From a virus, in the IMG/VR virus record IMGVR_UViG_3300046167_000888: a stretch of DNA of 64,000 nt, one strand, 5' to 3'. The notes below the pieces were generated by a model. It was given only the letters and a program-made list of their open reading frames with translations. It was not told where the DNA came from and did not search any database. Of this stretch, positions 10,384 through 64,000 are shown piece after piece. A program made the position numbers and the translations under genes. Each line of letters opens with the position of its first letter. Positions within the stretch are counted from its first letter, which is position 1.

Positions 10384-10418
10384 TCCCACATATTTATAAT
10401 AATAAAATATTTAAACGG

Positions 10419-12245: not shown

Positions 12246-12499
12246 GTAAAAATAAAGGATTTTTTTCGGAAATTAAAAACCAAGTAAAGACAGGTATAGG
12301 ATTAGTTATAACAGCAGGTTTCGGATTATTAATTGCTAATATGCAATCAATATTTGAACCTAAAGAAGATGTTATAGAACCACCTGTAATGGAACAAAAG
12401 ATTAACCCACCAGCAGCTTCTAAAGATACTATTGTAATTTCTAAAACAATAATTATACCTCCTAAGAAAGAAAAAAAAGAAGAAGAAATAACATGGTAA
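12242..12499 (+). CDS. Small single-pass membrane protein
   Basis: One hydrophobic helix, Pro-rich linker; overlaps both neighbours. Confidence 0.6.
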   Translation: MSKNKGFFSEIKNQVKTGIGLVITAGFGLLIANMQSIFEPKEDVIEPPVMEQKINPPAASKDTIVISKTIIIPPKKEKKEEEITW

Positions 12500-13197
12500 G
12501 AATATTTTTAGTCATATCGTTACTCCTAAGTCTTACAGCTAATGCTCAATTAGGTAAAACTGAAACAGAAAATTATAAAGGTAAATTTGAACAAGATGCA
12601 GATATAGATGAAGTATCTGATTATATGTTAGATTATCAATTACCAATTCAAGTCTTAAATATTGGCTTCACACCAGAATTATATGAGTTTTATCCTGAAT
12701 TAAGAGAAAATAGAGTAGGATTAGGTGTTAGTAATATTACTTTATCTTATCTAGAATGGACTGATAGATTTTTATTTACAGAAGATAAAGAAGATATTAA
12801 ACAAAGAATGGTTAAGCAACATAAAGCTGCAGCAAAAGGTATATCGGCAAACGATATTAAAGTTGTAGGCAATGTTGTGTTAGCAGAATATTTTGTATAT
12901 GTAGAAATCTATGATTACTCGGTATCAGAAGAAGAAGAAGTTACAGTTAATGGGGTTAAAACTGTATTAAAAACAATTATTGGTATGCAAGTTAGATTTG
13001 TGAATGCTGAAACTGGAACTATTTTTACAGGAAGTGGTAGTGGTGAAGCAGTTACAATTAAACGATCTCAAATTGGAGAAGATAATGAAGTTAAATTTAA
13101 TAAATCTACAATAGGGATTGCTACTAAAAAAGCTTTAGAATCTGGAACTGCTCGTATCGTAAAAAGGATGATAAAACGTGGAATATTTAAAGAATAA
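12493..13197 (+). CDS. CsgG/HfaB-like periplasmic/outer-membrane assembly protein
   Basis: Signal peptide; GLGVSNITLSYL..RF, AEYFVYVEIYDY, IGMQVRFVNAETGTI pattern. Confidence 0.65.
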   Translation: MVRIFLVISLLLSLTANAQLGKTETENYKGKFEQDADIDEVSDYMLDYQLPIQVLNIGFTPELYEFYPELRENRVGLGVSNITLSYLEWTDRFLFTEDKEDIKQRMVKQHKAAAKGISANDIKVVGNVVLAEYFVYVEIYDYSVSEEEEVTVNGVKTVLKTIIGMQVRFVNAETGTIFTGSGSGEAVTIKRSQIGEDNEVKFNKSTIGIATKKALESGTARIVKRMIKRGIFKE

Positions 13198-14344
13198 AAT
13201 ATTATTAATTTTATTTCTCTTACCATTAGTAAGTTACGGCCAGTGGTCTTATACATTTACAGACCCTTGTACTTTAACTCAACAAACAATTCAAATAGGA
13301 GGCAGCAACTCTGTTGCTTTAAATTATTTTGGTAATGTCCAAACATTTACTCAAGATGATTTTTCAAATGGAGCTTTTGATTCTTGGTTAGATTTAGTTA
13401 CTCAAGCTAATACTTCAAGCCCTTGTCAAAGTGTAACTCAAGTAATATTAAATACTACTAATTCAGTAGCAGTACAAAATACAGTTACAGTTGTTACAAA
13501 TATAATGTCTATATTAGGAGGAGATATGATACCTCAAGCAGCTTCATCTACAGCAGCCCCAGTTGCTGAAGCAATAGATAACTCTGCAGGTGAAGATGAA
13601 GATGAAGGATCAGGTAATGAAGAAGAAGAAGCCGAAGGTGCTGTTGCTACCTCACTTGCTAATTCTCTTTCAAATGCTGCAGATGGAGGAAGTGCAGAAG
13701 CTAATAAAAATGCTGGTTCATTAATTGCATCTGGAGATCTTGTAATTATAGACAATCAAGATAATTCAAACGGAAGACAACTAAAAGTAGTTAGCTCAAT
13801 TACACACGCCAATACAGAACAAACTAGAATTAAAGGAGCCTTATTTACATATACATCTGTTACTAATGATTTTAGTTTAACCCTTTATAAATCATGGATT
13901 AATCCTAAAAGAACATTTAATTTAGTAGGTGCAAACACTACTATGACAGATTGGAATTTGAACCATTTAAATACAACTACTATTTTAGAGTCATTTAAAT
14001 TTGGTAAAAAGAAATATACAGGTATGGCTGGTCTTAATTTTACAATCGGAAAATTAGGTAAACGAGATCTACAAAATATATCTTCAGTAGCTGGAATACA
14101 TAGAAATTTTAAAATAAGTGATAAAGTAACTACATCAACTTTACTATTAGGTGTCTATTCTCCATTTACACAATATTATGAAGGCAAATGGTGGGATCCA
14201 GGTATGCTAATAGTACCTTTTAGTTCATGGGATATAAAAATAACAAAAACATTTAAATATAATATCAGTTTTACTGGAGTTTGGCATTCACAAGGAAATG
14301 CATTAAATTTTCAGGTATTAACTGGTGGTAAAATAAGATTTTAA
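13178..14344 (+). CDS. Secreted protein with acidic low-complexity linker and probable C-terminal outer-membrane beta-barrel
   Basis: Signal peptide, Cys pair, EDEDEGSGNEEEE linker, amphipathic strands, terminal GGKIRF. Confidence 0.6.
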   Translation: MEYLKNKILLILFLLPLVSYGQWSYTFTDPCTLTQQTIQIGGSNSVALNYFGNVQTFTQDDFSNGAFDSWLDLVTQANTSSPCQSVTQVILNTTNSVAVQNTVTVVTNIMSILGGDMIPQAASSTAAPVAEAIDNSAGEDEDEGSGNEEEEAEGAVATSLANSLSNAADGGSAEANKNAGSLIASGDLVIIDNQDNSNGRQLKVVSSITHANTEQTRIKGALFTYTSVTNDFSLTLYKSWINPKRTFNLVGANTTMTDWNLNHLNTTTILESFKFGKKKYTGMAGLNFTIGKLGKRDLQNISSVAGIHRNFKISDKVTTSTLLLGVYSPFTQYYEGKWWDPGMLIVPFSSWDIKITKTFKYNISFTGVWHSQGNALNFQVLTGGKIRF

Positions 14345-27825: not shown

Positions 27826-29586
27826 GTGTATAAAAAATGTTATCAAGGTAGAAAGTTAGGAACGAATATGTGGGAAATGCATCTATGGGAATCAGATGAT
27901 GTACATCAAAAAATCCCATTTGAAAATTTTGCATATGTTGAGGACGATGAAAACTTTACACATAAAGGATTAAATGGTGAAAATTTAAAACCAACACTAG
28001 ATTGGTTCTATACTAAAGGTAAAAATAAACATAAAAATACTCCAAGACTTCATTTCCATGATATGAAGTATCCTCAAAAATTTCTTATTGAGCGATATGG
28101 AACTAATGATGAACCATCTACAGGTCATAAAGAAATATTTTTTGATATTGAGTGTGAGATGTTAGACTCATTTGAAGTAGAAGAAATTGAAAAAGCAAAT
28201 AAAACTATTACTTCAATAGCATTTTGGGATAAGAAAAGTGATTTCTGGGCTTGTTTAGTTTTAGATCCTAAAGGTGAAGTTGAACAAACTAAAAAAGTAA
28301 TTCCATTCGATACTGAAGAAAAATTACTTATGGCATGGGTTGAAGTTATAATGAAAATTCGACCTGACATTTTAATAGGTTATAATAGTGACAGTTTTGA
28401 TATGCCTTACCTTTACTATAGAATTTGTAATGTTTGTGGTAAAGATGTAGCTGATATGATGTCTCCACTTTATGGTTATGTAGAGGAACCAGTTAAATCT
28501 AAAAAATATAGTGATTTCTTTTATGCTAATGGGATGTTTATTAGTATAGAAGGTATCGAGTCTTTAGATTATATGCGTTTACATAAAAAATATAGTTGGG
28601 CTGATGAACCTAGTTGGAAATTAGATGCGATTGGAGAAAAATATGTTGGTGTAAAAAAGATTGAATATGATGGTAATCTAAATGATTTATATAAAGATGA
28701 TATTCAGAAATTTGTTGAATATAACTTTCGTGATGTTGAAATATTGAAATTATTAGATGAAAAATTAGATTATATAGCATTAACTAGAAACATTGCTCAT
28801 AAAGGTAAACACAATTATAGTGAAGTTTATGCAAACACCACTACACAAGACGGAGCAATTTCAGCTTATCTATTAGGCCAAGGTATTGTACCTAGTAATA
28901 AAGAAGTTAATCCTCAGAAAAAACAAGGATATGCTGGTGGTTGGTTATTTTGTCCTGAAGCTGGATTATATGAAAATATGTTTGATTTAGATTTAACATC
29001 ACTATATCCTGCAATTATAAGGACAATTAATATTGGGAGAGAAACTTATGTAGGGAGAATATTAGATGCTGATGATAGAAATAATCGTTTAGGATTAAAT
29101 GATTTAAAAGCTATGGATCCAAAAACTTCAGTTATATTTGAAACACCTAAAATGTTACAAGAAAAATGGGAAGTGGGAAAAATTGTTAAAGCTGTTGAAA
29201 AAGGTAAATATAGAGTTGCTGCTAATGGGTCATTTTTCTCAAGTAAGAAAAAATCAACATTATCTGTTATTCTAGAAAAATGGTTTAATGAACGTGTTGA
29301 ATATAAAAACAAAATGAAAGCTGCTTATAAAGCAAAAGATACTGAAAAAGGTAAATACTATTACTTAATGCAGTATACAATGAAAATTTTGCTTAATAGT
29401 TTATATGGAGCTACTGCAGTACCTAATTTTAGATATGGTATGAATTATTCTATTTTAAGTGAAGCAATTACATTATCAGGACACAGAATTATTCAAGAGA
29501 GTGCTTTATGTGCTAACAAATATTATAATAAAATTATTGAAGGTGAAATACCTAAAGAAGAATTTATCTCAAAACTAAAACTATGA
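27826..29586 (+). CDS. Family B DNA polymerase, N-terminal subunit (3'-5' exonuclease, motifs A and B)
   Basis: FFDIE, GYNSDSFDMPY, YNFRDV, DLTSLYP, KILLNSLYG. Confidence 0.92.
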   Translation: MYKKCYQGRKLGTNMWEMHLWESDDVHQKIPFENFAYVEDDENFTHKGLNGENLKPTLDWFYTKGKNKHKNTPRLHFHDMKYPQKFLIERYGTNDEPSTGHKEIFFDIECEMLDSFEVEEIEKANKTITSIAFWDKKSDFWACLVLDPKGEVEQTKKVIPFDTEEKLLMAWVEVIMKIRPDILIGYNSDSFDMPYLYYRICNVCGKDVADMMSPLYGYVEEPVKSKKYSDFFYANGMFISIEGIESLDYMRLHKKYSWADEPSWKLDAIGEKYVGVKKIEYDGNLNDLYKDDIQKFVEYNFRDVEILKLLDEKLDYIALTRNIAHKGKHNYSEVYANTTTQDGAISAYLLGQGIVPSNKEVNPQKKQGYAGGWLFCPEAGLYENMFDLDLTSLYPAIIRTINIGRETYVGRILDADDRNNRLGLNDLKAMDPKTSVIFETPKMLQEKWEVGKIVKAVEKGKYRVAANGSFFSSKKKSTLSVILEKWFNERVEYKNKMKAAYKAKDTEKGKYYYLMQYTMKILLNSLYGATAVPNFRYGMNYSILSEAITLSGHRIIQESALCANKYYNKIIEGEIPKEEFISKLKL

Positions 29587-40738: not shown

Positions 40739-42193
40739 ATGAATAAAAGTTTTAAATATCTTCCTAAAGATCAAAGGAAGAAAATCTTACTAGTCTGTGA
40801 TGATATTAGAGTACATTCCGGTGTAGCTACAGTAGCCAAGGAAATTGTGATGCATACGTGCCAACACTTTAATTGGGTAAATGTTGGTGGTGCTATTAAA
40901 CACCCTGAAGCAGGTAAAAGGTTAGATCTTAGTTCTGATACTCAAAAAATGACTGGAGTAGAAGATGCATCAGTTTTTATGTATGCAGTTAATGGTTATG
41001 GTAATACACAAGAAATCCATAATATTATTAATATTGAAAAACCAGATGCTGTTATGTTGTTTACAGATCCAAGATATTTCTTACATATATTTAATATGGA
41101 AGATCAAATTAGAAAAATATGCCCAATTGCATATTTGAATATTTGGGATGATTATCCAGCACCTAGATACAACCAACCATTTTATGAAGCATGTGATTTA
41201 TTAATGGGTATTTCTAAACAAACAGTTAATATTAATAAATTAGTTTTAGCTGACTGTGATAATAGTAAACGAGTATTTAAGTATATTCCTCATGGTTTAG
41301 ATCATACTCATTATTTTCCAATTAATGAAGATCATGAGTTATATGATGAGTTTAAAAAATTCCAAAAAGAAACTTTATTCAAAAATAAAGAAGTAAACTT
41401 CTCTATGTTCTTTAATTCAAGAAACATTCGTAGAAAACAAATTCCAGATACAATGATGGCGTTTAGATGTTTCTTAGATACTTTACCACTTGAAGAAGCA
41501 TTAAAATGTAGATTTGTTTTACATACTGAATTATCAACAGATCATGGTACAGATTTAGATGCAGTAAGAGAATATTTGTTTGAAGAAAAATATAGAGAAT
41601 GTATTATATTTTCACATCAAAAACTAGATAGAAAACACTTAAATTTCTTATACAATTCAGCTGATGTTCAAATCTTATGTACTTCAAATGAAGGATGGGG
41701 GTTAACATTAACAGAAGGAATGTTAACTGGAACACCAATTATAGCTAATGTAACAGGTGGAATGCAAGATCAAATGAGATTTGTTGATGAAAATGGAGAA
41801 TGGTTTACACCAAGTCCTGATGTACCTTCTAATCATAGAGGTACCTATAAAGAACATGGTGAATGGGCATTTCCAGTATATCCAACTAGTAGATCAATTC
41901 AAGGTTCTCCATTAACACCTTACATCTATGATGACCGAGCTAAATTTGAAGATATAACAGAACAAATTAAAACAGTTTATAATCTATCAGATGAAGAAAG
42001 AAAACAAAGAGGTATTAAAGGTAGAGAATGGTGTTTGAGCGATGAAGCAGGATTTAATGCTGAAAAACAAGGTGAAAGAGTAATTGAAGCATTTGATGAG
42101 TTATTTAAAGTATGGGAACCAAGAGAAGACTTTGAAATAATAGACATAAATGAAGTAAAAGGTAAATATTTAAACCACAAAATTTTATATTAA
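40739..42193 (+). CDS. GT-B (GT4-like) glycosyltransferase
   Basis: SGVATV, IPHG, RNIRRK, EGWGLTLTEGM. Confidence 0.85.
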   Translation: MNKSFKYLPKDQRKKILLVCDDIRVHSGVATVAKEIVMHTCQHFNWVNVGGAIKHPEAGKRLDLSSDTQKMTGVEDASVFMYAVNGYGNTQEIHNIINIEKPDAVMLFTDPRYFLHIFNMEDQIRKICPIAYLNIWDDYPAPRYNQPFYEACDLLMGISKQTVNINKLVLADCDNSKRVFKYIPHGLDHTHYFPINEDHELYDEFKKFQKETLFKNKEVNFSMFFNSRNIRRKQIPDTMMAFRCFLDTLPLEEALKCRFVLHTELSTDHGTDLDAVREYLFEEKYRECIIFSHQKLDRKHLNFLYNSADVQILCTSNEGWGLTLTEGMLTGTPIIANVTGGMQDQMRFVDENGEWFTPSPDVPSNHRGTYKEHGEWAFPVYPTSRSIQGSPLTPYIYDDRAKFEDITEQIKTVYNLSDEERKQRGIKGREWCLSDEAGFNAEKQGERVIEAFDELFKVWEPREDFEIIDINEVKGKYLNHKILY

Positions 42194-43467
42194 TGAGCAA
42201 ACCAGTTTTTATAATAAGTTGTCCTGTAGACACATATAGTGGATATGGAGCACGTTCAAGAGATATAGTTAAATCTATTATTGAATCAGATAAATATGAT
42301 GTTAAAGTACTACCTCAAAGATGGGGTGATACACCAGGTGGTTTTTTAAATGACCATAAAGAATGGCAATTCCTAAATCAACATATTATTCCTAATATCC
42401 AATCTAAACCAGATATTTGGATGCAAATTACTATTCCAAATGAATTTCAACCAGTAGGAAAATATAATATTGGATGTACAGCTGGAATTGAAAGTACAGG
42501 TTGTGATGTTACTTGGATCGAAGGTATAAATAGAATGGATATGACATGGACGTCTTCTAAACATAGTAAAGGCGTATTTGAAGATCTTAAATTTGAAAGA
42601 CGTAATAAGCAAACTAATCAGATTGAAGGTACAGTAAAATGTGAAAAACCTATTCATGTTGTATTTGAAGGTGTAAATTTAGATTTATATAAACATATTC
42701 CAAACAGCAGTAATACACTTGATTTAAGCAGTATTAAACCTGGATTTAACTTTTTATTTGTAGGACATTGGATGCAAGGTGATATTGGTCATGATAGAAA
42801 AAATGTTGGTTTAATGATTAAATATTTTATTGATCTATATAAAAATAAAAATTCAGCACCTGGATTAATCTTAAAAGCATCTTCTGGTAGAAATAGTTAT
42901 TATGGGAGAGAAACATTACTTAGAAAACTTAAGAAAATAAAATCAACTTATCCTCTAGATACTATTTTTCCACCTATTTATTTAATAAATGGAAATTTAA
43001 CAGATGAACAAATGAATGAGTTATATAATCATCCTAAAGTAAAATGTATGGTTAGTATGACTAAAGGTGAAGGTTATGGTAGACCGTTAGCTGAATTTGG
43101 TTTAAGTAAAAAACCTATTATTGCTTCGGGATGGTCAGGGCAAATTGATTTCTTAAATCCTATGCATACTACTTTACTACCAGGTAATTTAGAAAATGTT
43201 CACCCAAGTGCTGCTAATAATTGGTTAAAGAAAGATTACCAATGGTTCCAAGTTAGCCCTAAACATTTTCAAAATGCTTTAAAATCGGTACACCAAAAAT
43301 ATAAAAAGTTTGTAGTGCCTGCTAAAAAACAAGGACACCATATTAAAACTAATTTTAGTTATGAGGCAATGAGAGATCTAGTTAATAATATTTTAGATGC
43401 TAATATTCCTGAATTTCCTAAACAAGTAGAATTATCATTACCAACTTTAGAAACACCTAAATTATAA
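42193..43467 (+). CDS. GT-B (GT4-like) glycosyltransferase
   Basis: SGYG, RKNVG, GEGYGRPLAE, PIIASGWSG. Confidence 0.85.
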   Translation: MSKPVFIISCPVDTYSGYGARSRDIVKSIIESDKYDVKVLPQRWGDTPGGFLNDHKEWQFLNQHIIPNIQSKPDIWMQITIPNEFQPVGKYNIGCTAGIESTGCDVTWIEGINRMDMTWTSSKHSKGVFEDLKFERRNKQTNQIEGTVKCEKPIHVVFEGVNLDLYKHIPNSSNTLDLSSIKPGFNFLFVGHWMQGDIGHDRKNVGLMIKYFIDLYKNKNSAPGLILKASSGRNSYYGRETLLRKLKKIKSTYPLDTIFPPIYLINGNLTDEQMNELYNHPKVKCMVSMTKGEGYGRPLAEFGLSKKPIIASGWSGQIDFLNPMHTTLLPGNLENVHPSAANNWLKKDYQWFQVSPKHFQNALKSVHQKYKKFVVPAKKQGHHIKTNFSYEAMRDLVNNILDANIPEFPKQVELSLPTLETPKL

Positions 43468-43470
43468 ATT

Positions 43471-43908
43471 ATGCAATACGATGAAATTATAGATTGTCCT
43501 AGATCAGGTGGTGATTTATGCTATAAAACTGAAGTGACTCCTGAAGTAACTAATTATTATAGTTTATCTTGTGGGTTTTGGACTAATAGTTTAATGACCC
43601 CAGATCAAGATTTTTATAAACAACAAATGGAGGTATTACCTGAATTATATAAAGATTTAGCTTGGTTAGATCCAAAAACTGAATTAATATGGTTACCTCA
43701 TTCAATTAATGATCCTAAATTAGGAATGGTTTATGCTGCTGGTGCTAGTGCCGATGATTGGAGATGGGCTGCAGTTAAAGCTAAAGAAATTAAAAAAGAA
43801 GAACAAGAAAAATTTGGTTCAACACATAAAGCTGATATGACTACAATAGCATATTTTAATGAACGTGATTATATGGATGCTTTGTCGTATATTGGATTGT
43901 TACCATAA
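43471..43908 (+). CDS. Hypothetical protein
   Basis: Intact ORF. Confidence 0.6.
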   Translation: MQYDEIIDCPRSGGDLCYKTEVTPEVTNYYSLSCGFWTNSLMTPDQDFYKQQMEVLPELYKDLAWLDPKTELIWLPHSINDPKLGMVYAAGASADDWRWAAVKAKEIKKEEQEKFGSTHKADMTTIAYFNERDYMDALSYIGLLP

Positions 43909-43914
43909 TATAAT

Positions 43915-44539
43915 ATGAAAATAAGTTACGCTATAACGGTTTGTAATGAATTAAAAGAAATAACATTGTTATTAAATTTTCTTTTAAAGGCAAAACGAGA
44001 AGAAGATGAAATAGTTATTTTATTTGATAAGAAAAATGGTTCACCTGAAGTATGGAATTTACTTGCAGAGTTAAAAGGAGAATCAAATGTTACTTATACA
44101 TCAGCTACATTCAAAAACCATTTTGCTGATTGGAAAAATTATTTAACTAGTTTATGTTCTGGTGATTATATATTTCAAATTGATGCTGATGAAATGCCAC
44201 ATGGTACTTTAATACAAAATTTACCTTCAATATTAGAAATGAATAAAGGTAATGAAGTATTTTTAGTTCCTAGAGTTAACACAGTTAAAGGGACTAACTA
44301 AAGAACATATTCAGAAATGGCAATGGAGAGTTGATGATAAAGGTTGGGTTAATTGGCCTGATTATCAATGGCGTATTTGGAAAAATTTACCTGAAATTAA
44401 ATGGGTAAATAAAGTACATGAAAAACTAGAAGGGTTTAAGACATATTCTCTATTACCTGAAATGGAAGAAGTATGTTTATATCATAATAAACATATTAAA
44501 CGACAAGTTAAACAAAACGATTATTACGATACATTATGA
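43915..44539 (+). CDS. GT2 glycosyltransferase; 1-nt frameshift near 44288-44292
   Basis: ISYAITVCNE, QIDADE; continues GLTKEH..WPDYQWR..KVHE in the next frame. Confidence 0.8.
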
Positions 44540-45111
44540 AAACACTAGAAGAAATTTATTCAAATCATAATAATGGAAATAGTGGAGCTGGACATGGAGA
44601 TAAAGGTACAGTACATTCTTACATCCCAGAATATGAAAAGTTATTTGCACCTTATAGAGATAAAAAAATTAATATTTTAGAAATTGGTATTGCTTATGGT
44701 GAGTCTTTAGAATTATGGGATAAATATTTTACTAATGCAAATGTATTTGGGGCTGATATTCATGATATAGAAATATTTAGTGATAAATTTAAACCTGGAG
44801 GTTATAAAGATGATGAAAGGTTTACAATATGGATTTCGGATGCTACTAAACCTGAATTTTTAGATGTAATAGGTGATACTAAATTTGATATTATTATTGA
44901 TGACGGTTCACATAGATTAAATGATCAAATAGCAACATATGAATTATTAAAAGATAGAATGAATCCTGGTGGTTTGTTTATAATTGAAGATGTAGCTAAT
45001 ATTACAATTGATGCTATTGAATTTGAAGAAAGACATGATGATGTTGAAATATATGATGGTAGAGAAAAGAAAAATCGTTACGACGATGCTTTAATAATTT
45101 TAAAATTTTAA
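44536..45111 (+). CDS. Class I SAM-dependent (sugar O-)methyltransferase
   Basis: LEIGI, GADI, FDIIIDDGSH, GGLFIIED. Confidence 0.85.
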   Translation: MKTLEEIYSNHNNGNSGAGHGDKGTVHSYIPEYEKLFAPYRDKKINILEIGIAYGESLELWDKYFTNANVFGADIHDIEIFSDKFKPGGYKDDERFTIWISDATKPEFLDVIGDTKFDIIIDDGSHRLNDQIATYELLKDRMNPGGLFIIEDVANITIDAIEFEERHDDVEIYDGREKKNRYDDALIILKF

Positions 45112-45114
45112 ATT

Positions 45115-45912
45115 ATGATTAGTATAATAATCCCAACTTATAGAAACCCAGAGTATTTAGACATATGTTTAAAATCTTGTATTGAACAACAACATAATAA
45201 AAACCAAATTATAGTTGCGGTAGATGGGTTTATTAATGAAAGTAAAGAAGTATTAGATAAATATAAAGACGATATTAACATTCTTGATTTAAGAGAAAAT
45301 CAAGGTATGCAAACAGCACTTAATTTAGGTGTAATGAATGCCGTTAATGAAATAATATTTGTTGTAAATGATGATAATGTTTTTAGTAAGGATTTTGATT
45401 TAGAAATTGAATCACAATTAAAAGAAAAAAACGTATTAACATTAAATCAAATTGAACCTGAAGGCCCTGGTATATTCAATTTCCCAGTTAAAGACTTTGG
45501 ACGTAATCCAAGTGAATTTAAATACGAAGAATTTATTGAATATGAACAATCAATTAGAAAAAATGAATTAACTATTGATGGTGGTATTTTTCCATTTGCA
45601 ATGTATAAAAAATATTATATGGCAGTAGGTGGATTTGATGTAATGTATAAATCACCGTTTATTTGTGATTGGGATTTCTTCTTAAAATTAGATTTAATTG
45701 GGTTAGGATTTACAAGATCACATAATGCTCATTTATATCACTTTGGAAGTACAGCTACTAAAAATGGTAAAGAAGGAGATAGATTTAAGGCGTCTGAAAA
45801 CCCGGCTGCACAGGTATTTATGTATAAATGGGGTATTCCACCTCAATTATTTGAAAATCATAGTCATAATCCTAAAAATGGTTTAGTTATAAAAGGTATT
45901 AAATTCGAATGA
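45115..45912 (+). CDS. GT2 glycosyltransferase
   Basis: ISIIIPTY, VNDDN, GGFD, DWDF. Confidence 0.85.
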   Translation: MISIIIPTYRNPEYLDICLKSCIEQQHNKNQIIVAVDGFINESKEVLDKYKDDINILDLRENQGMQTALNLGVMNAVNEIIFVVNDDNVFSKDFDLEIESQLKEKNVLTLNQIEPEGPGIFNFPVKDFGRNPSEFKYEEFIEYEQSIRKNELTIDGGIFPFAMYKKYYMAVGGFDVMYKSPFICDWDFFLKLDLIGLGFTRSHNAHLYHFGSTATKNGKEGDRFKASENPAAQVFMYKWGIPPQLFENHSHNPKNGLVIKGIKFE

Positions 45913-46598
45913 AAGTAATATACAGGATATCAGATTCAGGTTATAATAAAGTTAAACCTGATTACATTACAAATGAAGCATGTTTAGCAAATGCAGTTAA
46001 AGTATTTGATGATTGTGAATGGTCTATTATAGCAGATAACGTTTCTAAGGAAACTAGTGATATGATTGAAAAATATAAATCTAAAGATCATATTTTATAT
46101 GTTAATAAAGGAAATGGTGCTGCTACATTTAATATAGCTTTAGATGAAGCACTACAAATGTCAGATAGTGATACTGTTTATTTTTTAGAAAATGATTATT
46201 TACACAAACCAGATTCTAGAGTTATTATTGAAGAAGGATTATCATTAGGAGCTAAATTTGTTTCATTATATGATCATCCAGATAAGTATTTATCACCTGA
46301 AAAAGGTGGTAACCCATATTGTGAAGGAGGAGCTGAAGATACTAGGGTATACTTAACTGATTCCGTACATTGGAAGATAACAAATAGTACAACAATGACA
46401 TTTGCAGCACAAGTTAGTACATTAAGAAAAAATGAAAAAATACTTAGACATCATACTTCAGGTACACATCCAAATGACTTTCAAATGTTTTTAGAATTAA
46501 GATACGCAAAAGAATTATTAGTAACCCCGATACCAGGTTATGCTACTCATGGAGAGACAGCTTGGTTATCACCATTAACAGATTGGTCTAAAATATGA
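45909..46598 (+). CDS. GT-A-fold glycosyltransferase-like protein
   Basis: VYFLENDYLH, STTMTFA. Confidence 0.65.
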   Translation: MKVIYRISDSGYNKVKPDYITNEACLANAVKVFDDCEWSIIADNVSKETSDMIEKYKSKDHILYVNKGNGAATFNIALDEALQMSDSDTVYFLENDYLHKPDSRVIIEEGLSLGAKFVSLYDHPDKYLSPEKGGNPYCEGGAEDTRVYLTDSVHWKITNSTTMTFAAQVSTLRKNEKILRHHTSGTHPNDFQMFLELRYAKELLVTPIPGYATHGETAWLSPLTDWSKI

Positions 46599-47611
46599 AA
46601 AAAAATATATTAATAACAGGTGTAGCAGGTCTATTAGGTAGTAGATTAGCTGATTGGATAATTGAAAACAAAGGTGATGAATATCAAGTAATTGGTGTTG
46701 ATGATTTAAGTGGTGGATTTGAAGAAAACATACATCCAGATGTTAAATTTTGGCAAATGGATTTAGTAAACCATCCAATTGAAAATATATTTGAAGCACA
46801 TAAAATTGACTATGTATATCATTTTGCGGCTTATGCTGCTGAAGGATTATCGCCTTTTATACGTGGATACAACTATGATAACAACTTAAAATCAACAGCA
46901 CGCCTAGTTAATGAATGTATAAAGGCTGACGTTAAAAGATTGGTATTTACGTCTACATTAGCTGTGTACGGTCATGGTTATGGTGGCATTTTTGATGAAA
47001 AACAACAACAAGCACCAATAGATCCTTATGGAGTAGCAAAATATGCTTGTGAAATGGATATTCAAATTGCTGGTGAGCAACATGGATTAGATTATTGTAT
47101 AATTAGACCTCATAATGTTTATGGTATTAAACAAAATATCTGGGACAAATATAGAAATGTACTTGGTATTTGGATGTTCCAACACTTAAATAAACAACCA
47201 TTTACTATATTTGGAGATGGACAACAAACAAGAGCATTTAGTTATATAGACGATTCATTAGAACCCTTATGGAATGCAGCTATTAAACCAGAAGCAAGTA
47301 AAGAGATAATTAATTTAGGTGGTATAGAAGAATATTCAATTTTAGATGCGAGTATTGCTTTAAAAAATGTTATAGGATTAGATACAGGTAAAAGACCAGA
47401 AACGGTATTTATGGAAGCTAGACATGAAGTAAAACATTCAATACCAACATACCAGAAATCAATTGACATATTAGGTTTTAAACATAAAACTGACTTGGAA
47501 GCTGGATTAACTGAAATGTGGAAATGGGCTAAACAACAACCTATGAGAGATAGATTTGTATGGCCAAGTTATGAATTAGATAAAGGTATTTATTCGTTTT
47601 GGAAAAACTAG
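46595..47611 (+). CDS. NAD-dependent nucleotide-sugar epimerase/dehydratase
   Basis: GVAGLLG, YGVAK, RPHNVYG, GDGQQTRAF. Confidence 0.9.
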   Translation: MKKNILITGVAGLLGSRLADWIIENKGDEYQVIGVDDLSGGFEENIHPDVKFWQMDLVNHPIENIFEAHKIDYVYHFAAYAAEGLSPFIRGYNYDNNLKSTARLVNECIKADVKRLVFTSTLAVYGHGYGGIFDEKQQQAPIDPYGVAKYACEMDIQIAGEQHGLDYCIIRPHNVYGIKQNIWDKYRNVLGIWMFQHLNKQPFTIFGDGQQTRAFSYIDDSLEPLWNAAIKPEASKEIINLGGIEEYSILDASIALKNVIGLDTGKRPETVFMEARHEVKHSIPTYQKSIDILGFKHKTDLEAGLTEMWKWAKQQPMRDRFVWPSYELDKGIYSFWKN

Positions 47612-48174
47612 AGTTTATAATCCCTACTTACAATGACGGAAATAATTTAATGGGTATGTTATACTCATTAATTAATCAAACTAATAAAAATTGGACTGCT
47701 CATGTTGTAGCAGATGGTAGTTATGATGGGTTTGAAGGTATAGCTGAACATTTTTGTATATGTGATAATATTAAATTTTCTAAAATTGATGGTCCTCATA
47801 AAGATTGGGGTCATACAGCTAGAAATTATGGTTTAGAACATGCTAGTGAAGATTGGGTGGTAATGACAGGTGCTGATAATTACTATATGCCCGATTTCGT
47901 AAGTGAATTTTTAAAAAATACTCTAGATAATAATTTTTTATTTTGTAATATGGTTCATAACGAAGCACATTATAAACATTATCAGGAATTAAAAGCATCA
48001 TTAACTGAAGGTAATATTGATATGGGTTGTTTTGCTACTAAAACAGAATATGCTAAACAATTAAGATTAAAACCAAAAAGATACATAGCAGACTGGATTT
48101 TTGTAGAAAACTTTATTACATTGTTCCCTGGTAATATTAAACACATAGATAAAATTTTATACGTACATAATTAA
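47599..48174 (+). CDS. GT2 glycosyltransferase
   Basis: IIPTYN, ARNYGL, GADNYY. Confidence 0.8.
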   Translation: MEKLEFIIPTYNDGNNLMGMLYSLINQTNKNWTAHVVADGSYDGFEGIAEHFCICDNIKFSKIDGPHKDWGHTARNYGLEHASEDWVVMTGADNYYMPDFVSEFLKNTLDNNFLFCNMVHNEAHYKHYQELKASLTEGNIDMGCFATKTEYAKQLRLKPKRYIADWIFVENFITLFPGNIKHIDKILYVHN

Positions 48175-48181
48175 AAATAAC

Positions 48182-49006
48182 ATGGATATAGGAATTATAG
48201 GACAAGGCTTCGTTGGTAATGCTATTTATCAAAAATTTAAACATTATTATAATGTAAAAACATATGATATAAAAGGTACTATTCATTGTAATAGTAAGGA
48301 AGAGGAAACAATGTCATGTGAGATTGTATTTGTTTGTTTACCAACTCCAATGAACCATGATGGAAGTTGCCATACAGATATAGTTGAAAATGCTGTTGAT
48401 CATATAAATGAATTAAATAAAGCTAAAATTGTAGTAATTAAATCTACTATAACACCAGGTACTGTAGCAAAATGGAATAAACAATATAAAAATGTAAGTA
48501 TTGTATTTAATCCTGAATTTTTAACTGAAGCAAATGCAGTAAATGATTTTGAAAATCAAACAAGAGTAATACTAGGTGGTCCTAGAAAAGGAACTACTAA
48601 ACTAAAAACAGTTTATTCTAAAGTATTCCCTAAAGCAACTATAGTTAAAACTGATTCAACATATGCTGAAATGGTTAAGTATGTTACTAATAGCTTCCTG
48701 GCGACTAAAGTATCATTTGCAAATGAAATGTATCAAATATGTGAAGGATTAGATGTTGATTATGATAAAGTAATTGAATATGCTATGTATGACGAGAGGT
48801 TAGGTTCATCACATTGGAATGTACCAGGACCAGATGGTGATTTTGGATATGGTGGACATTGTTTTCCTAAAGATGTTCAAGCATTATTAATTAAAGCTGA
48901 AGAATTAGGAGTAGCACCACTAATGTTAGAAGCAACTCATTCGAAAAATTTACAAGTAAGAAACAATAAAGACTGGTTAGGAATGAAAGGTCGAGCAATT
49001 ATATAA
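48182..49006 (+). CDS. UDP-glucose/GDP-mannose 6-dehydrogenase family protein
   Basis: GQGFVG, KSTITPG, NPEFL, KVSFANE, GYGGHCFPKD. Confidence 0.9.
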   Translation: MDIGIIGQGFVGNAIYQKFKHYYNVKTYDIKGTIHCNSKEEETMSCEIVFVCLPTPMNHDGSCHTDIVENAVDHINELNKAKIVVIKSTITPGTVAKWNKQYKNVSIVFNPEFLTEANAVNDFENQTRVILGGPRKGTTKLKTVYSKVFPKATIVKTDSTYAEMVKYVTNSFLATKVSFANEMYQICEGLDVDYDKVIEYAMYDERLGSSHWNVPGPDGDFGYGGHCFPKDVQALLIKAEELGVAPLMLEATHSKNLQVRNNKDWLGMKGRAII

Positions 49007-49007
49007 T

Positions 49008-49595
49008 ATGGCAGAAAAATCAATTATAGTATTAGACAATTTTTATAGTGATCCCCATCACATTAGACAAAGAGCATTTGGAATGGAATGGTTAGACAAA
49101 TATGGTAACCATCCAGGTAAAAGAACTTATGCAGATAGACACCCAAGCGTTAAAATAGCATTAGAAGATGCTATTGGTAAAAAAATTACTAATTGGGATG
49201 AAGATTGGAATACACATAATGGGGCTTATAATTTATGTAAACAAACAGACAGATGTTGGATTCATTCTGATTGGGGTACAAGTTGGGCTTGTGTAGTATA
49301 TTTAACTCCAGATGCTCCATTATCATCAGGTACAGGTTTATATCAACATAAAAAAACTGGATTTAGATCACCTCATGATGCTAAAACACCAGAAGAAAAA
49401 GCATTAGCTAAAGAATTTGAAAAGAATGATTCATTAGATTTTACTGCTTGGGAATTAACTGATTATGTTGGTAATGTATTTAACAGAGCAGTTTTATACG
49501 CTGGACATTATTATCATTCTGCGGTACAATATTTTGGTCATAGCGATGAATATTGCAGAATGCACCAAACTTTCTTCTTTTCCACAGAAAATTAA
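49008..49595 (+). CDS. DUF6445-like 2OG-Fe(II) oxygenase
   Basis: LDNFY, WIHSD, VYLTPDAP..GT, FNR..YHS, RMHQTFFF; paralog of 33415..34059. Confidence 0.8.
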   Translation: MAEKSIIVLDNFYSDPHHIRQRAFGMEWLDKYGNHPGKRTYADRHPSVKIALEDAIGKKITNWDEDWNTHNGAYNLCKQTDRCWIHSDWGTSWACVVYLTPDAPLSSGTGLYQHKKTGFRSPHDAKTPEEKALAKEFEKNDSLDFTAWELTDYVGNVFNRAVLYAGHYYHSAVQYFGHSDEYCRMHQTFFFSTEN

Positions 49596-52291: not shown

Positions 52292-52417
52292 ATGGCAAAA
52301 ATTCAATTAAGCAATTATATCTCAAAAGCTGGTAAGAAAAGACCAGGTGTGCATTCAAAAAATGCTTCAAGAGGACAAAATGGATATAAAAAAGCTTACA
52401 GAGGACAAGGTAGATAA
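52292..52417 (+). CDS. 41-aa basic peptide ending YRGQGR (not in ORF track)
   Basis: MAKIQLSNYISKAGKKRPGVHSKNASRGQNGYKKAYRGQGR after an ATATTTAT motif. Confidence 0.55.
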   Translation: MAKIQLSNYISKAGKKRPGVHSKNASRGQNGYKKAYRGQGR

Positions 52418-53072
52418 ATTTAAAAGACAGGGTTACATTCATTTAGAAAATGTTATAGAATCTTCTCTATTAGCTCATACTCGTAATCGAGCTATAAAAC
52501 TTAAATTAAAATACCAAAGTAAATTAGGTGAACAAAGACATAATGGTTCAGGTACATTTTGGGGTGGGCTTGAATTGGCTAGTACTTTAGATCCATCGTT
52601 ATGGAAAAGTTATACATCAGTTACGATGTATAGACTATCTAAAACACTATTAGGTACAGAACCTTATTTATTTAATGATCAAGTTGTAGTTAAATCTCCT
52701 AATGAAGATTTTAAATTTGATCCTCATACTGATAATATGTTAGGACCTGATCCTGCTGGTGCATTAGAAGGTAAATTTCAAACAATTAATTTTTGTCAAA
52801 TATTAACTAACATGACTGATTTAGATGTTGGTCCATTATCTGTTTTAAATGCTGAAACTAATAATTACGATACAATATTAGCATCTGCTGGTGATATAGT
52901 TGCTATAGATGGAAATACTTTACATGCATCTACTGCTAACGTTTCCAATAAAATGAGAGCATTATACGCTTGTGTTTATTCTTCTCATGCAATAGGTGAT
53001 TTTCAAAAGGGATTTTATAATGAAGCATTTGCAGAATTGCTTGGCTACCCGAAGTACTGTTCGTATATTTAG
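52380..53072 (+). CDS. Phytanoyl-CoA dioxygenase-like 2OG-Fe(II) oxygenase
   Basis: FKRQGYIHL, DQVVVK, PHTDN, AGD..DGNTLHAS. Confidence 0.8.
   Translation: MDIKKLTEDKVDKFKRQGYIHLENVIESSLLAHTRNRAIKLKLKYQSKLGEQRHNGSGTFWGGLELASTLDPSLWKSYTSVTMYRLSKTLLGTEPYLFNDQVVVKSPNEDFKFDPHTDNMLGPDPAGALEGKFQTINFCQILTNMTDLDVGPLSVLNAETNNYDTILASAGDIVAIDGNTLHASTANVSNKMRALYACVYSSHAIGDFQKGFYNEAFAELLGYPKYCSYI
53040..53071 (+). promoter_or_regulatory. Repeated promoter motif
   Basis: CTTGG..TCGTATATTTA. Confidence 0.75.
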
Positions 53073-57675: not shown

Positions 57676-57921
57676 ATGAAATTAGAAAGTATAGTAGACA
57701 ATATTTGGAAATGTGGATGTGGGTCATTAAATTCCCCATATAATAAAAAATGTGGTGGTTGTGGTATAGAAAATAGATTTAGAGTTATGGATGGAAACGA
57801 AATAATAGAAAGGTTAAAAGCAATAAGACAAGACGTAAGTGATGTTAATCTTAAAAATGCAATGCAAAAGATAGATTACTTATGTGATGATATATTTATG
57901 TATAAAAATAACAGTTTATGA
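57676..57921 (+). CDS. Small zinc-ribbon protein
   Basis: WKCGCG..N..CGGCG. Confidence 0.5.
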   Translation: MKLESIVDNIWKCGCGSLNSPYNKKCGGCGIENRFRVMDGNEIIERLKAIRQDVSDVNLKNAMQKIDYLCDDIFMYKNNSL

Positions 57922-58655
57922 TTAAAGGGGTTATAGCAGGAAATTTTGATGCAATGCATCCAGGATACATTAAAATGTTTAATGAAATGAAACAACATTG
58001 TGATGTATTAGTTGTATTACTCCATGTTGATCCTTCAATTGAACGACCTCATAAATTAAAACCTATATTATCAGCTGATGAACGTAAAGATATGTTAATG
58101 TCTTTAGAAGATGTTGATGATGTAATTAGATACACCTATGAAGAACAATTGCTTTGGTTATTAAAAAAAGGTGAATTTGATATTAGATTTTTAGGTGATG
58201 ATTATGTAGACAAACCATTCACAGGTGATAATCTAAAATTACCAATATATTACTTAAATAGAGATCATGGTTGGTCAACAACTAAATATAAAACGTTAAT
58301 AGCTAACAGTCTAAATGAAACAGATGAGCGACCTTGGGGTAAATATGAAGTATTACTTGATGCACCTGATGTTAAAATAAAACGAATTACTGTTAACCCA
58401 GGTCAAAGATTATCATATCAATATCATGAAAAGCGAGCTGAAGTATGGACAGTTGTAAGTGGTATACTTACAATTATTTTAGAAGACGATAAATTATTTA
58501 GAGGTAAAGGACAATCAGTTAGAATACCTCAAGGAGATAGACATAGAGCTTGGAATGAAACTGATACACCAGTAGTATTTATTGAAGTACAAACCGGTTC
58601 TTACTTTGGTGAGGACGATATAATAAGAATAGAAGATGACTATAAAAGAAATTAG
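57918..58655 (+). CDS. Cytidylyltransferase (TagD/RfaE-like) fused to type II phosphomannose-isomerase cupin
   Basis: GNFDAMHPGY..WSTT; RPWG, LSYQYHEKRAEVW, EVQTGSYFGEDDIIRIEDDY. Confidence 0.85.
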   Translation: MIKGVIAGNFDAMHPGYIKMFNEMKQHCDVLVVLLHVDPSIERPHKLKPILSADERKDMLMSLEDVDDVIRYTYEEQLLWLLKKGEFDIRFLGDDYVDKPFTGDNLKLPIYYLNRDHGWSTTKYKTLIANSLNETDERPWGKYEVLLDAPDVKIKRITVNPGQRLSYQYHEKRAEVWTVVSGILTIILEDDKLFRGKGQSVRIPQGDRHRAWNETDTPVVFIEVQTGSYFGEDDIIRIEDDYKRN

Positions 58656-59722: not shown

Positions 59723-60053
59723 AACGTGTGCTTGGTGCTTTAAAAAAACAAACCTACCAGATGTGTTTGCTGCTGAGGCTCCACTAATGATATTTATGGA
59801 GGACCGTATTAATAAATGGTGTGAGGAACATAATATAACAAGAGATGAGTTATGGGGTGGAGAAAGCGATTGGAATAAAATTGACTTAGACCCAGCAATG
59901 GAAATGGAATTACTAGCATATGATGAATTAGTAGCTAGTGTGTCTAAAAAAACCATATGTAAAGAATGTTTGATTGAAGATGATAAGGTTTACAAGAAAT
60001 ATTATTTAGATTTTGAAAACGATATAACATTTACTTTAGACGATATAGAATGA
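59715..60053 (+). CDS. Hypothetical protein with split CxxC..CxxC
   Basis: CAWC..CKEC. Confidence 0.55.
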   Translation: MAKTCAWCFKKTNLPDVFAAEAPLMIFMEDRINKWCEEHNITRDELWGGESDWNKIDLDPAMEMELLAYDELVASVSKKTICKECLIEDDKVYKKYYLDFENDITFTLDDIE

Positions 60054-60198
60054 AATACTTAATAGAATACAATTGGGGGACAAACGATAAATACAATGAA
60101 TCAGTTACAATCGAAACTGATAATATTGAATATACCTGTGAGCAAATGGGTAGACATAGAAATAATATAGAATTTACTAAAATAAAGTTATTAGACGA

Positions 60199-61566
60199 AT
60201 GAAAATAGATCATATATTTGTAATTAATTTAAATACACCTGATGAAGAGATAATCAAACGATTAGGATCAATTCAATGGCCATATAAAATTCCTTACTAC
60301 ATACTACCAGCTACTAATGGTTGGGAGGCAGTAAACGATAAAAGTAAAGCACACCATGATTTTAAACTAGCAGATTGGTGGAAAATACAAGGTGAAACAT
60401 CATCTAAAAATGCTAGTTTTTATACTAGAGATGTAACACCAGGTGAAGCAGGTTGTATGCTATCCCATTATCAATGTATTTACAATGCATATAAAGACGG
60501 ATTAAATAACATATTAATATTTGAGGAAGATTTTTACTCATATGGTAAATTTCCTACACAAGCAGAATTTGATTCAATCCCAGTAGATGCTAGTTTAGTT
60601 TATTTAGATAGAAGCCAACAGTGTCCTGATTGGGATGAACACCGAGTTAATGATTACGTTACTAAAGTAGGATACACTTATAATAATCATGCTTATGTTA
60701 TGACTAGAAAGGGTATGAAAGAGGTACTCGATTCAGCTATATTAAATAATATTATAGTTAGTGATGAATTCTTCCCTGCTATAAATGGTACTAGTGATAG
60801 AAAAGATGCTGTTAGAATATTCCATAATGAAAGTTTCCAAGCATATGCTTTAAATGGAGGTTATTTTGGTCAAACATCCAATCCAAATATTAATGCATTA
60901 ACTGAATTTCCACCTGAATATGTTAATAATTTAAATAAACCTGTAGATAAAATACCTGAGATATTAGATGATAGTGATTGGGATGCTTATTGTAAAAAAT
61001 ATATTAACCCACAAATAATAAATCAGGAGTACGATTTAATTATAGATGAACCAGCACCTTGTGTTTATGAATTTCCATTCTTTAATAAACGTTTTTGTAA
61101 GCAACTAATACAATTAGGTGAAAAATTTGAATGGACAACAGGTAGACATAAATTCTACCCAACAACAGATAACGTACTTGAGGTATTAGGTATGGATAAA
61201 ATTTATAATAAATTAATAAATCAATTTGTAAGACCATTAGCAATAAACAGATATGGATTAGAAGGTAAAACATGGGATCATTTAGCTGATGAAACATTTA
61301 TTATTAAATATCCTCATGATGCACAGGCACATTTAAGTTTACATCATGATCATGCTAGTATAACTACATTAGTTAATTTAAATCCAGGTGAATTTGAAGG
61401 TGGGGGTACATATTTTCCAAGATGGAAAACATTAATTAATCCAGAAGAAATAGGTACAATGACACTACATCCAAGTAATATAACTCATAAACATGGAGCT
61501 AGACCAGTAACTAAGGGTACAAGATACGTTGTAGTATCATTTATTAAAAATACAGACTTACAATAA
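60199..61566 (+). CDS. Fusion of GT25 (COLGALT-like) glycosyltransferase and PLOD-like lysyl hydroxylase domain
   Basis: IFVINL, TPGEAGCMLSHY, LIFEEDF, AYVM..DEFFP; then VYEFPFF..FC, PTTD, FIIKY, LHHD, EGGGT, HPSNITHKHG, GTRYVVVSF. Confidence 0.8.
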   Translation: MKIDHIFVINLNTPDEEIIKRLGSIQWPYKIPYYILPATNGWEAVNDKSKAHHDFKLADWWKIQGETSSKNASFYTRDVTPGEAGCMLSHYQCIYNAYKDGLNNILIFEEDFYSYGKFPTQAEFDSIPVDASLVYLDRSQQCPDWDEHRVNDYVTKVGYTYNNHAYVMTRKGMKEVLDSAILNNIIVSDEFFPAINGTSDRKDAVRIFHNESFQAYALNGGYFGQTSNPNINALTEFPPEYVNNLNKPVDKIPEILDDSDWDAYCKKYINPQIINQEYDLIIDEPAPCVYEFPFFNKRFCKQLIQLGEKFEWTTGRHKFYPTTDNVLEVLGMDKIYNKLINQFVRPLAINRYGLEGKTWDHLADETFIIKYPHDAQAHLSLHHDHASITTLVNLNPGEFEGGGTYFPRWKTLINPEEIGTMTLHPSNITHKHGARPVTKGTRYVVVSFIKNTDLQ

Positions 61567-63243: not shown

Positions 63244-64000
63244 ACGCGGTTTAAACGCGCCAAAATCAATGGCGATAGATGTAATGACAAGCAATTGTAA
63301 CGCAAGTTAAACGCAATATAAACCGCAAATTTCGCCTGGAATAATATGCTATAGCGTTTGAAACGCAAAAGTGTGACAATATAAATCTACGTATGTCACA
63401 ATATCAACAACTAATTACATTTGGATATAAACATATGCTTACATATGACAAGTTTATCGTGTGGTATATAGGATAAATCAAGGTGGGTGTTAACCCCTAT
63501 GCATCGCAAGCCAACCCTCTTCGACTCGAACGATATATACTTGTGAACAATGCAGATCCTGCAATGTGCACCAATGAACATTAAATTAAACATGAATATA
63601 CGCAATATACTTGTGACACATGGGGATACTGCAAGGCCCGTGGGTTTCACAACGAAATACAAACGTAATTGGTAATAATTTGGCTGCCGTAATGTAATTT
63701 CGTATATTTAAGTGTGTGTTGATATGGAGGTGTATAGGCAATCCAGCGATAAACATAACCGTGTACAAATCTACTCATACGGTAAAACATATTTACACAT
63801 GAATTATTAATACGGTAGTAAACAAGGCATGATACCTTATGCCATGATATTTTACACCGTACACCTTATTACATCCATACTACATACTGGAATATTATTA
63901 TATACATTATTTATCCCCCGCCGGCGTACGTATGCATATATATGTTAATATCCCATGCGTATTGATGTCCATATATGCGTGGATATATGAGAAAAAGGTT
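63244..64000. other. Long non-coding region with short repeats
   Basis: No credible ORF; AAACGC repeats; TGTGACA/TGTCACA inverted pair. Confidence 0.55.
63679..63710 (+). promoter_or_regulatory. Repeated promoter motif with no downstream ORF in window
   Basis: TTTGG..TCGTATATTTA. Confidence 0.65.

Follow-up and report, generated by a model that had tools for sequence, protein, structure and literature searches.

Why would a bacteriophage encode an enzyme resembling those with which animals modify collagen? The question is raised by the P0001 gene, at positions 60199..61566 (+ strand) of a 64,000-nt stretch of viral DNA, one strand of IMG/VR record IMGVR_UViG_3300046167_000888 (hereafter, the window). 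Among viruses, mimivirus is the one exception to the view that hydroxylysine (Hyl)-linked glycosylation of collagen belongs to animals. However, an earlier note on this DNA described the 455-amino-acid (aa) product of the gene as a COLGALT-like family 25 glycosyltransferase (GT25) fused to a PLOD-like lysyl hydroxylase (LH). From the sequence comparisons described below, we think it rather probable that P0001 is produced during infection as a cytoplasmic enzyme with two activities, both directed at protein lysines, and that its substrates are the phage's own collagen-like tail fibres, capped by S74-type chaperones.

The open reading frame (ORF) and every motif quoted in the earlier note are present in the translation. 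The motifs of the GT25 part are GEAGCMLSHY (residues 82-91), IFEED (107-111) and DEFFP (189-193), and those of the LH part are VYEFPFF (289-295), PTTD (321-324), FIIKY (367-371), HHD (382-384), HPSNITHKHG (424-433) and GTRYVVVSF (440-448). The identification as a GT25-LH fusion gene is based on the ORF, its translation, and the Pfam and PDB matches. The COLGALT-like GT25 domain, of the GT-A type, is predicted to occupy 60202..60858 (+ strand; residues ~2-220) and the LH domain, of the type found in PLOD and mimivirus L230, 60988..61548 (+ strand; residues ~264-450). Pfam recognizes Glyco_transf_25 (PF01755) at residues 5-123 (41.7 bits; cut-off 24), OGFOD2-like at residues 272-349 (39.6 bits; cut-off 31) and 2OG-FeII_Oxy_3 at residues 371-449. 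The protein lacks a signal peptide and any membrane or secretion signal, and it is predicted to be cytoplasmic.

When the single P0001 sequence was compared with all PDB chains by phmmer, residues 264-450 matched LH3/PLOD3 and mimivirus L230 (E ~7e-22) and residues 73-195 matched COLGALT1 (E 3e-8). The matches at E < 0.01 consist of ten distinct sequences, and every one of them is a collagen enzyme. A family profile built from 17 members (56-83% identity among the homologues) and searched against the PDB sharpens this ranking. The LH half matches LH3 at 4e-31 and L230 at 3e-30, whereas the next 2-oxoglutarate (2OG) oxygenase, a Bacillus prolyl 4-hydroxylase (P4H), appears at 0.034. The GT25 half matches COLGALT1 at 1.6e-25 (residues 2-220 to 310-529), as against 1.2e-3 for a bacterial GT25 galactosyltransferase. 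Thus, among solved structures, the collagen enzymes are more than 20 orders of magnitude ahead of other families for both domains.

The AlphaFold model of P0001 (predicted local distance difference test, pLDDT, 81.9) leads to the same enzymes. Foldseek places its LH half on the L230 LH domain (6ax6) with a template-modelling (TM) score of 0.85, a root-mean-square deviation of 2.4 A and 30% identity, and the model gives this half a double-stranded beta-helix with the N-terminal helical extension that is specific to LHs. The GT half of the model finds COLGALT1 (E 1.7e-13) ahead of both mimivirus R655 (1.8e-7) and bacterial GT25 enzymes. Relatedness to PLOD and COLGALT was judged by these ranked profile and fold searches of the PDB, and so at the level of solved structures the C-terminus groups with PLOD/L230 and not with generic oxygenases, and the N-terminus groups with COLGALT1 and not with bacterial GT25 enzymes of the lipooligosaccharide (LOS) type. 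By sequence and fold-model comparison, we consider confirmed the assignment of the C-terminal domain as a PLOD/L230-type LH and of the N-terminal domain as a COLGALT-like GT25, as the earlier note had it.

The residues that would be required for both reactions are in place. The Fe ligands of L230 are H825, D827 and H877 and its 2OG ligands are Y814 and R887 (PMC5802723); the former align with H382, D384 and H432 of P0001 and the latter with Y371 and R442, and all five are invariant in the alignment of the 17 homologues. In GLT25D1 (COLGALT1), E435-D436-D437 form the Mn/UDP (uridine diphosphate) site, and a 'DE' motif supplies the catalytic base (D522) and the anchor of the Hyl epsilon-amino group (E523) (PMC12987934). 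HMMER aligns E109-E110-D111 of P0001 with the first of these and D189-E190 with the second, and the GLT25D1 register is validated because the residue count reproduces the published DxD at 461-463. E109, D111, D189 and E190 are invariant in the 17 homologues and E110 is nearly so.

The chemistries predicted for P0001, and their succession (Lys to Hyl to hexosyl-Hyl), are those of the human enzymes LH3/PLOD3 and COLGALT1/GLT25D1 (6fxk, 8zgc, 9evj, 9u7h), and the GLT25D1 D-E motif and Mn-binding acidic motif are kept in the phage protein. However, the organization is different. In animals, LH3 and COLGALT1 are separate proteins that form a complex in the lumen of the endoplasmic reticulum (ER), whereas the phage has one cytoplasmic chain. 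PLOD carries its own glycosyltransferase as well as accessory domains, and P0001 has no GT_PLOD domain at its N-terminus; it does not have the full-length, ER-lumenal PLOD architecture of GT-A, accessory and LH domains.

P0001 belongs to a large family. An index of 5.8 billion proteins contains 218 clusters (at 90% identity) that match the fusion at E <= 1e-5; 117 of the best 120 have the GT25 Pfam domain, most have OGFOD2-like as well, and almost every one originates from a marine metagenome. When the LH domain was used as the query of an exhaustive HMMER search, 2258 clusters at 50% identity were matched (593 below 1e-10), and in nearly all of the matched clusters this domain is C-terminal. 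IMG/VR contains 192 related loci, of which 80 were retrieved. The architectures of the sampled relatives include GT25 + PLOD-GT + LH, GT-B + GT25 + LH, PLOD-GT ... LH, and LH alone. In the first two types the LH domain is 42-52% identical to that of P0001, and the relatives with GT25 + PLOD-GT + LH hold, judged by their domains, the full animal enzyme set. The GT-B + GT25 + LH forms adjoin collagen-like tail fibres; they carry the second transferase in the same chain, whereas the window has a gene of its own for it, downstream of the fusion. The literature searched contained no account of either of these two types.

What, then, is modified? The earlier note had suggested collagen-like or Lys-rich virion fibres, and this link is borne out in the relatives, which are physically linked to genes for collagen-like tail fibres with Lys at the Y position of the Gly-X-Y triplets. 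In clades with <=41% identity to P0001, a collagen-like ORF on the same strand ends 1.8-3.7 kb upstream in nearly every locus that has at least ~2 kb of upstream flank. For example, locus L040 has, in order, a 1305-aa collagen fibre with an S74-type chaperone end, a 194-aa 2OG oxygenase, a GT-B + GT25 + LH fusion, the tail sheath, the tube and the tape measure. Of the 29 IMG/VR records with an LH that were searched, 22 have Pfam Collagen matches, or 22 of 24 when only records of 56 kb or more are counted; among LH-free control contigs of this length, such matches are present in 4 of 12 (Fisher p = 6e-4, indicative only). The controls were 23 contigs anchored on relatives of the window DNA polymerase; none of the 23 had the fusion (positive control 5/5) and only four had collagen.

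The composition of the fibres displays a similar pattern. Across 36 non-redundant collagen loci linked to an LH, the median for Y-position Lys is 10.4%, and for 67 loci without such a link it is 0.4% (Mann-Whitney p = 2e-7, again indicative only). Values below 2% occur in three of the 36 linked loci but in 38 of the 67 unlinked loci. The collagens of LH-free relatives of the window phage have ~0%. In an arbitrary sample of IMG/VR collagen-repeat loci (71 records searched), the full fusion is present in only one record, and this lone locus has the top value for Y-position Lys, 57%.

Several observations weigh against modification of collagen-like fibres by P0001. The linkage statistics count related contigs as independent, and therefore, the p-values are no better than indicative. 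LH-free phages make collagen-like fibres too, and thus, the modification is not needed for folding. In the model, pLDDT falls below 50 in loops 377-383 and 428-433, which flank the Fe ligands. The essential W495 of GLT25D1 is replaced by Asn162 (Y494-W495 corresponds to Y161-N162) and K470 by Ser139, and the GT25 domain begins at residue 2, so that the extra, non-catalytic GT-A lobe at the N-terminus of COLGALT1, which holds the high-affinity UDP-galactose site, is absent. These changes and the missing lobe would mean that acceptor and donor recognition differ from those of GLT25D1. The Asn at the W495 position is nearly invariant across the phage family, including the collagen-adjacent clades, and from the sequence we suppose that this GT25 probably works like a COLGALT without being a full member of that family. 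Finally, the collagen gene itself was not found near P0001. The scan for (Gly-X-Y)n proteins proposed in the earlier note came up empty within the 64-kb window, where the only run of at least four triplets is a trivial 4-triplet match inside a dehydrogenase gene, and no run of at least five triplets was found in the 10 kb past the window end, a region covered by contig L309, which is identical to the window. For a relative with 72% identity, a 65-kb contig that spans -8 to +57 kb around the fusion is likewise without a Gly-X-Y gene.

For the window's own clade, the main alternative is that P0001 modifies lysines of a non-collagen protein, either another virion protein, the small protein P0006 encoded upstream of it, or a host protein. 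We consider this unlikely, and the observations divide as follows. Within the own clade (>=51% identity), no collagen gene was found within 10 kb of the fusion, which is not beside collagen genes but follows P0006 and is ~10 kb upstream of a baseplate module; the 65-kb contig just mentioned and the loss of the acceptor-cleft residues W495 and K470 also agree with a different substrate. In the 72% relative, this gp25-like module (L313:19045 onward / L315:10597-19182) encodes a 2861-aa fibre-like protein that is rich in Ser, Asn and Thr and has neither a Pfam match nor collagen repeats; it is one candidate for the substrate. However, both P0006 and the 2861-aa protein have zero or almost zero Lys-Gly sites. 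The LH domain of P0001 is also 55% identical to stand-alone LHs located 3.4 kb from Lys-rich collagens, and such collagens are present in the own-clade contigs that extend far enough: G001 (56% identity) and G012 (51%) encode long Lys-rich fibres (GDKGEKG..., GQKGQKG...) 35-48 kb downstream of the fusion, one of them with a Peptidase_S74 domain (E 4e-17). Homologue searches with the GT25 domain alone, or with the N-terminal domain of the own-clade fibres, returned no protein from the window's contig. On the substrate, the wording 'collagen-like or Lys-rich virion fibres' of the earlier note is suitably cautious.

Another explanation is that the GT25 is a transferase of the lipopolysaccharide (LPS) or LOS type that remodels the host surface against superinfection, and that the oxygenase is unrelated or accessory. 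Databases do label GT25 as 'LPS biosynthesis protein', and the gene is within a 23-kb island that contains rfaE-like, UDP-glucose dehydrogenase-like and many glycosyltransferase genes; a published survey of marine T4-like phages ascribes O-chain modification to islands of this kind (PMC7029224), which fits the annotation label. The bacterial LOS beta-1,4-galactosyltransferases (e.g., 8xlz) do share the CAZy/Pfam family and the GT-A fold with P0001. However, only a 40-residue stretch of them aligns, as opposed to the full-length match to COLGALT1. They act on glycan acceptors and lack a fused oxygenase, whereas in the phage family GT25 is joined to a protein-lysine hydroxylase in hundreds of clusters. 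The Pfam GT25 model spans only the first half of the GT25 domain of P0001, and the protein has no signal that would take it to a membrane. We regard the LPS explanation as quite improbable.

Phages employ pairs of 2OG oxygenases and glycosyltransferases in DNA hypermodification, and this precedent would fit an enzyme that hydroxylates a nucleic acid base and then glycosylates it, as in the TET/JBP and glucosyltransferase systems, but TET, JBP and AlkB are absent from the PDB sequence matches at E up to 10 and from the best 50 of 175 significant fold matches, and the fold with its N-terminal helical extension is LH-specific, which makes a nucleic-acid substrate highly improbable. It is equally hard to believe that P0001 is a decaying passenger gene without current function, as the frameshift of its neighbour in this assembly might suggest, since its ORF is intact and identical in independent contigs of other samples, ~130 columns are invariant across the 17 aligned homologues, and the frameshift itself, which is absent from identical contigs and located within a G run, looks like an assembly error.

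Returning to collagen-like fibres as the substrate, we predict the following steps. The C-terminal LH, with Fe(II), 2OG and O2, would convert the lysines in X-Lys-Gly triplets of unfolded fibre chains to 5-hydroxylysine. The N-terminal GT25 would then move a hexose from a UDP-sugar onto the new hydroxyl, presumably by an inverting, Mn-dependent reaction with D189 as the base. The co-transcribed GT-B glycosyltransferase P0003 most likely adds the next sugar, and the P4H-like oxygenase P0002 may hydroxylate another residue, probably proline, of the same substrates, while the surrounding glycan island would supply or elaborate the sugars. The likely substrates are the phage's own long collagen-like tail fibres capped by S74 chaperones, which would end up glycosylated on the virion. 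The comparisons establish the domain identities, the conservation of the catalytic residues, the organization of the operon and, across genomes, the linkage to Lys-bearing collagen fibres; from them we infer the two activities, the sugar, the sequence of the reactions and which substrate the window phage has. The mimivirus L230 protein is active when co-expressed in E. coli (PMC9546862), and therefore, hydroxylysine chemistry can run in a bacterial cytoplasm.

The genes around P0001 are compatible with such a pathway. The earlier note had described its flanks as a small 2OG oxygenase and a GT-B, and both are present. The genes are translationally coupled in the order GT2, CxxC protein, 50-aa ORF, GT25-LH, small oxygenase and GT-B. 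The first gene, P0004 (58961..59722, + strand), encodes a GT2-family glycosyltransferase (Pfam Glycos_transf_2, 5.9e-7; 30 bits as against a cut-off of 23.3). The start of P0006 (59715..60053, + strand) overlaps the end of the GT2 gene; it encodes a 112-aa CxxC...CxxC protein with no Pfam or PHROG match, and its homologues are directly 5' of the fusion in 14 loci, all of them in the window's own clade. A 50-aa ORF (60050..60202, + strand), which has no Pfam match but is a predicted gene of the identical contig L309 too, links P0006 to the fusion by an ATGA overlap at each end, the second one formed by its stop and the ATG start of P0001.

Downstream of P0001 is the gene for the predicted small 2OG-Fe(II) oxygenase P0002 (61577..62138, + strand), which is P4H-like. 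By sequence its affinity is less specific, as the Pfam match (2OG-FeII_Oxy_3, 7e-12) is generic and the top PDB match is PiuC (E 0.004). However, H68, D70, H134 and R144 are invariant, and the model (pLDDT 82) has a P4H-type double-stranded beta-helix, for which the best folds are the protein prolyl 4-hydroxylases P. putida P4H, Dictyostelium PHD and PHD2 (TM ~0.55, E 2e-6), in agreement with the prolyl-hydroxylase-like description of the earlier note. The gene in the window has a 1-nt insertion (GG to GGG near 61659) that separates the first 27 codons from a 168-aa ORF beginning at the ATG at 61632, whereas contigs L309 and L310, which are otherwise identical, have an intact 186-aa ORF. Because these contigs are intact and the site is within a G run, the frameshift is probably a homopolymer assembly error. 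Similar indels may affect other genes of the same assembly.

The last gene of the operon encodes the 366-aa P0003 (62143..63243, + strand), a GT-B glycosyltransferase with weak matches to Pfam Glyco_trans_1_4 / Glyco_transf_4 and no PDB match by sequence. Its tie to the fusion, suggested by the earlier note, is supported by gene order: among 84 loci, a P0003-type GT-B is fused ahead of GT25-LH in 27 and is a neighbour in 27 more, directly upstream in 12 and, as in the window, directly downstream in 15. The N-terminal third of the 818-aa GT-B + GT25 + LH fusion of L040 is 32% identical to P0003 (E 2e-47). We assign the second-sugar step to P0003 as the most likely candidate because a known Gal-Hyl glucosyltransferase domain fills the same slot in other lineages. 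In animals, the second sugar is added by the GT-A of PLOD, whereas the phage candidate is a GT-B.

The closest characterised system is the L230/R655/R699/L593 set of mimivirus (Acanthamoeba polyphaga). L230, like P0001, is a viral protein in which one chain combines a glycosyltransferase at the N-terminus and an LH, with the same Fe and 2OG ligands, at the C-terminus; L230 is a bifunctional collagen lysyl hydroxylase and hydroxylysyl glucosyltransferase that acts on the virus's own collagen-like proteins. However, L230 has 895 aa, a PLOD-type glycosyltransferase and an amoeba host, whereas P0001, a putative enzyme of half that size, has a COLGALT-like GT25 and a bacterial host. R655 (GLT25D-like, putative), R699 (a Gal-Hyl glucosyltransferase) and L593 (a prolyl hydroxylase) make up a set parallel to P0001, P0003 and P0002, but R699 is PLOD-GT-like and not a GT-B, the three mimivirus genes are unlinked, and the virus is eukaryotic.

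The fusion operon is at the end of a glycan island of ~23 kb (40.7-63.2 kb) with at least eight glycosyltransferases. Its upstream part (40739..49595, + strand) encodes, according to Pfam and PHROG, a GT1-type glycosyltransferase, a second glycosyltransferase, a methyltransferase, three GT2s, an NAD epimerase/dehydratase, a UDP-glucose dehydrogenase-like protein and a DUF6445 protein. The last of these (49008-49595) is oxygenase-like, as is a PhyH dioxygenase at 52347-53072. Closer to the operon, 57918..58655 (+ strand) encodes a fusion of an RfaE domain II-like nucleotidyltransferase (CTP_transf_like, 5.8e-12) and a mannose-6-P-isomerase-type cupin (MannoseP_isomer, 4e-30), for which the PHROG match is heptose-1-P adenylyltransferase (3e-28); we assign it a putative role in sugar-nucleotide supply.

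It is also possible, although we offer the idea only tentatively, that Hyl is the anchor for a phage-built glycan. The GT25 and GT-B enzymes would make its core on long collagen-like fibres, and the 23-kb island, with its glycosyltransferases, methyltransferase, sugar-nucleotide enzymes and further oxygenases, would extend it to a complex coat that is the counterpart of the glycosylated fibril layer of mimivirus. As part of the same idea, the animal enzymes that modify collagen Lys may descend from a microbial pool, because the prokaryotic and phage forms of LH and GT25 are far more numerous and diverse.

The 757 bp 3' of the GT-B gene (63244-64000) have no ORF and are slightly GC-richer, with AAACGC repeated within the first 120 bases; in L309, the identical contig, the genes that come next are encoded by the other strand, and so this would be a strand-switch region. 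In L309, 3.6-5.3 kb past the window end (11548-13223), a methyltransferase gene accompanies two stand-alone GT25 genes in tandem (275 and 283 aa), and GT25 paralogues are also present in the own-clade contig G012 and in G019.

The window itself is densely packed, has ~30% GC and carries all of its genes on one strand. It encodes a DnaB-like helicase, a ribonucleotide reductase, a T4-type family B DNA polymerase and two tRNAs, which indicates a large T4-like phage. The polymerase ORF (27826-29586, 586 aa) matches its PHROG profile at 35-567 of 856, that is, the first two thirds, which is compatible with a split polymerase gene. The word TATAAATA of T4-type late promoters is not enriched in the window (12 observed and 23 expected), and it has no match near the operon. 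Megablast of 57-64 kb against GenBank phages gave no match, and tblastn found only distant stand-alone 2OG oxygenases of cyanophages and roseophages, at ~25% identity. No circular closure was found between the end of the 72%-relative contig and the window start.

The host is probably a marine member of the Bacteroidota. This prediction is based on two sequence observations, namely a type IX secretion system (T9SS) C-terminal sorting domain encoded in the window and the fact that the only two GTDB genomes with relatives of the fusion are metagenome-assembled genomes labelled Flavobacteriaceae. The sorting domain (30.5 bits, above the Pfam cut-off) is combined with a cohesin domain (2.8e-8) in the ORF at 11511-12245, and the two ORFs that precede it (9205-11507) have prealbumin/CnaB-like domains. 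The cohesin/T9SS ORF hints that some phage proteins are exported via the T9SS of the host. The idea of a pelagimyophage, with a SAR11 host, was dropped in favour of Bacteroidota after the sorting domain was found.

Searches of 8.1 million PMC papers and of bioRxiv found nothing on a phage-encoded LH or on Hyl glycosylation by phages, and a 2022 review states that prokaryotic and phage collagens are mostly neither hydroxylated nor glycosylated and names mimivirus as the sole virus for both (PMC8968730). The chemistry and the domains are known, and what is new is the compact architecture, the setting in a bacteriophage and a bacterium, and a GT-B as the candidate second transferase instead of a PLOD-type one. 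If the family is active, a large group of marine phages would run this chemistry in the bacterial cytoplasm. The glycosyltransferase islands of marine T4-like phages would then have to be re-read as serving to decorate virion fibres, not to edit the host O-antigen, and a compact 455-aa enzyme would be at hand for producing hydroxylated and glycosylated recombinant collagens in E. coli. With this family, the origin of PLOD and COLGALT can also be put to a phylogenetic test.

Some of the LH-containing proteins in the metagenomes (P0174, P0173 and P0021) have odd architectures. The forms observed are a Peptidase_C39 + LH protein of 607 aa, a GT25 + LH + TPR protein of 570 aa and one of 737 aa in which two GT25 domains precede the LH. 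The C39 + LH fusion hints at lysine hydroxylation of exported peptides.

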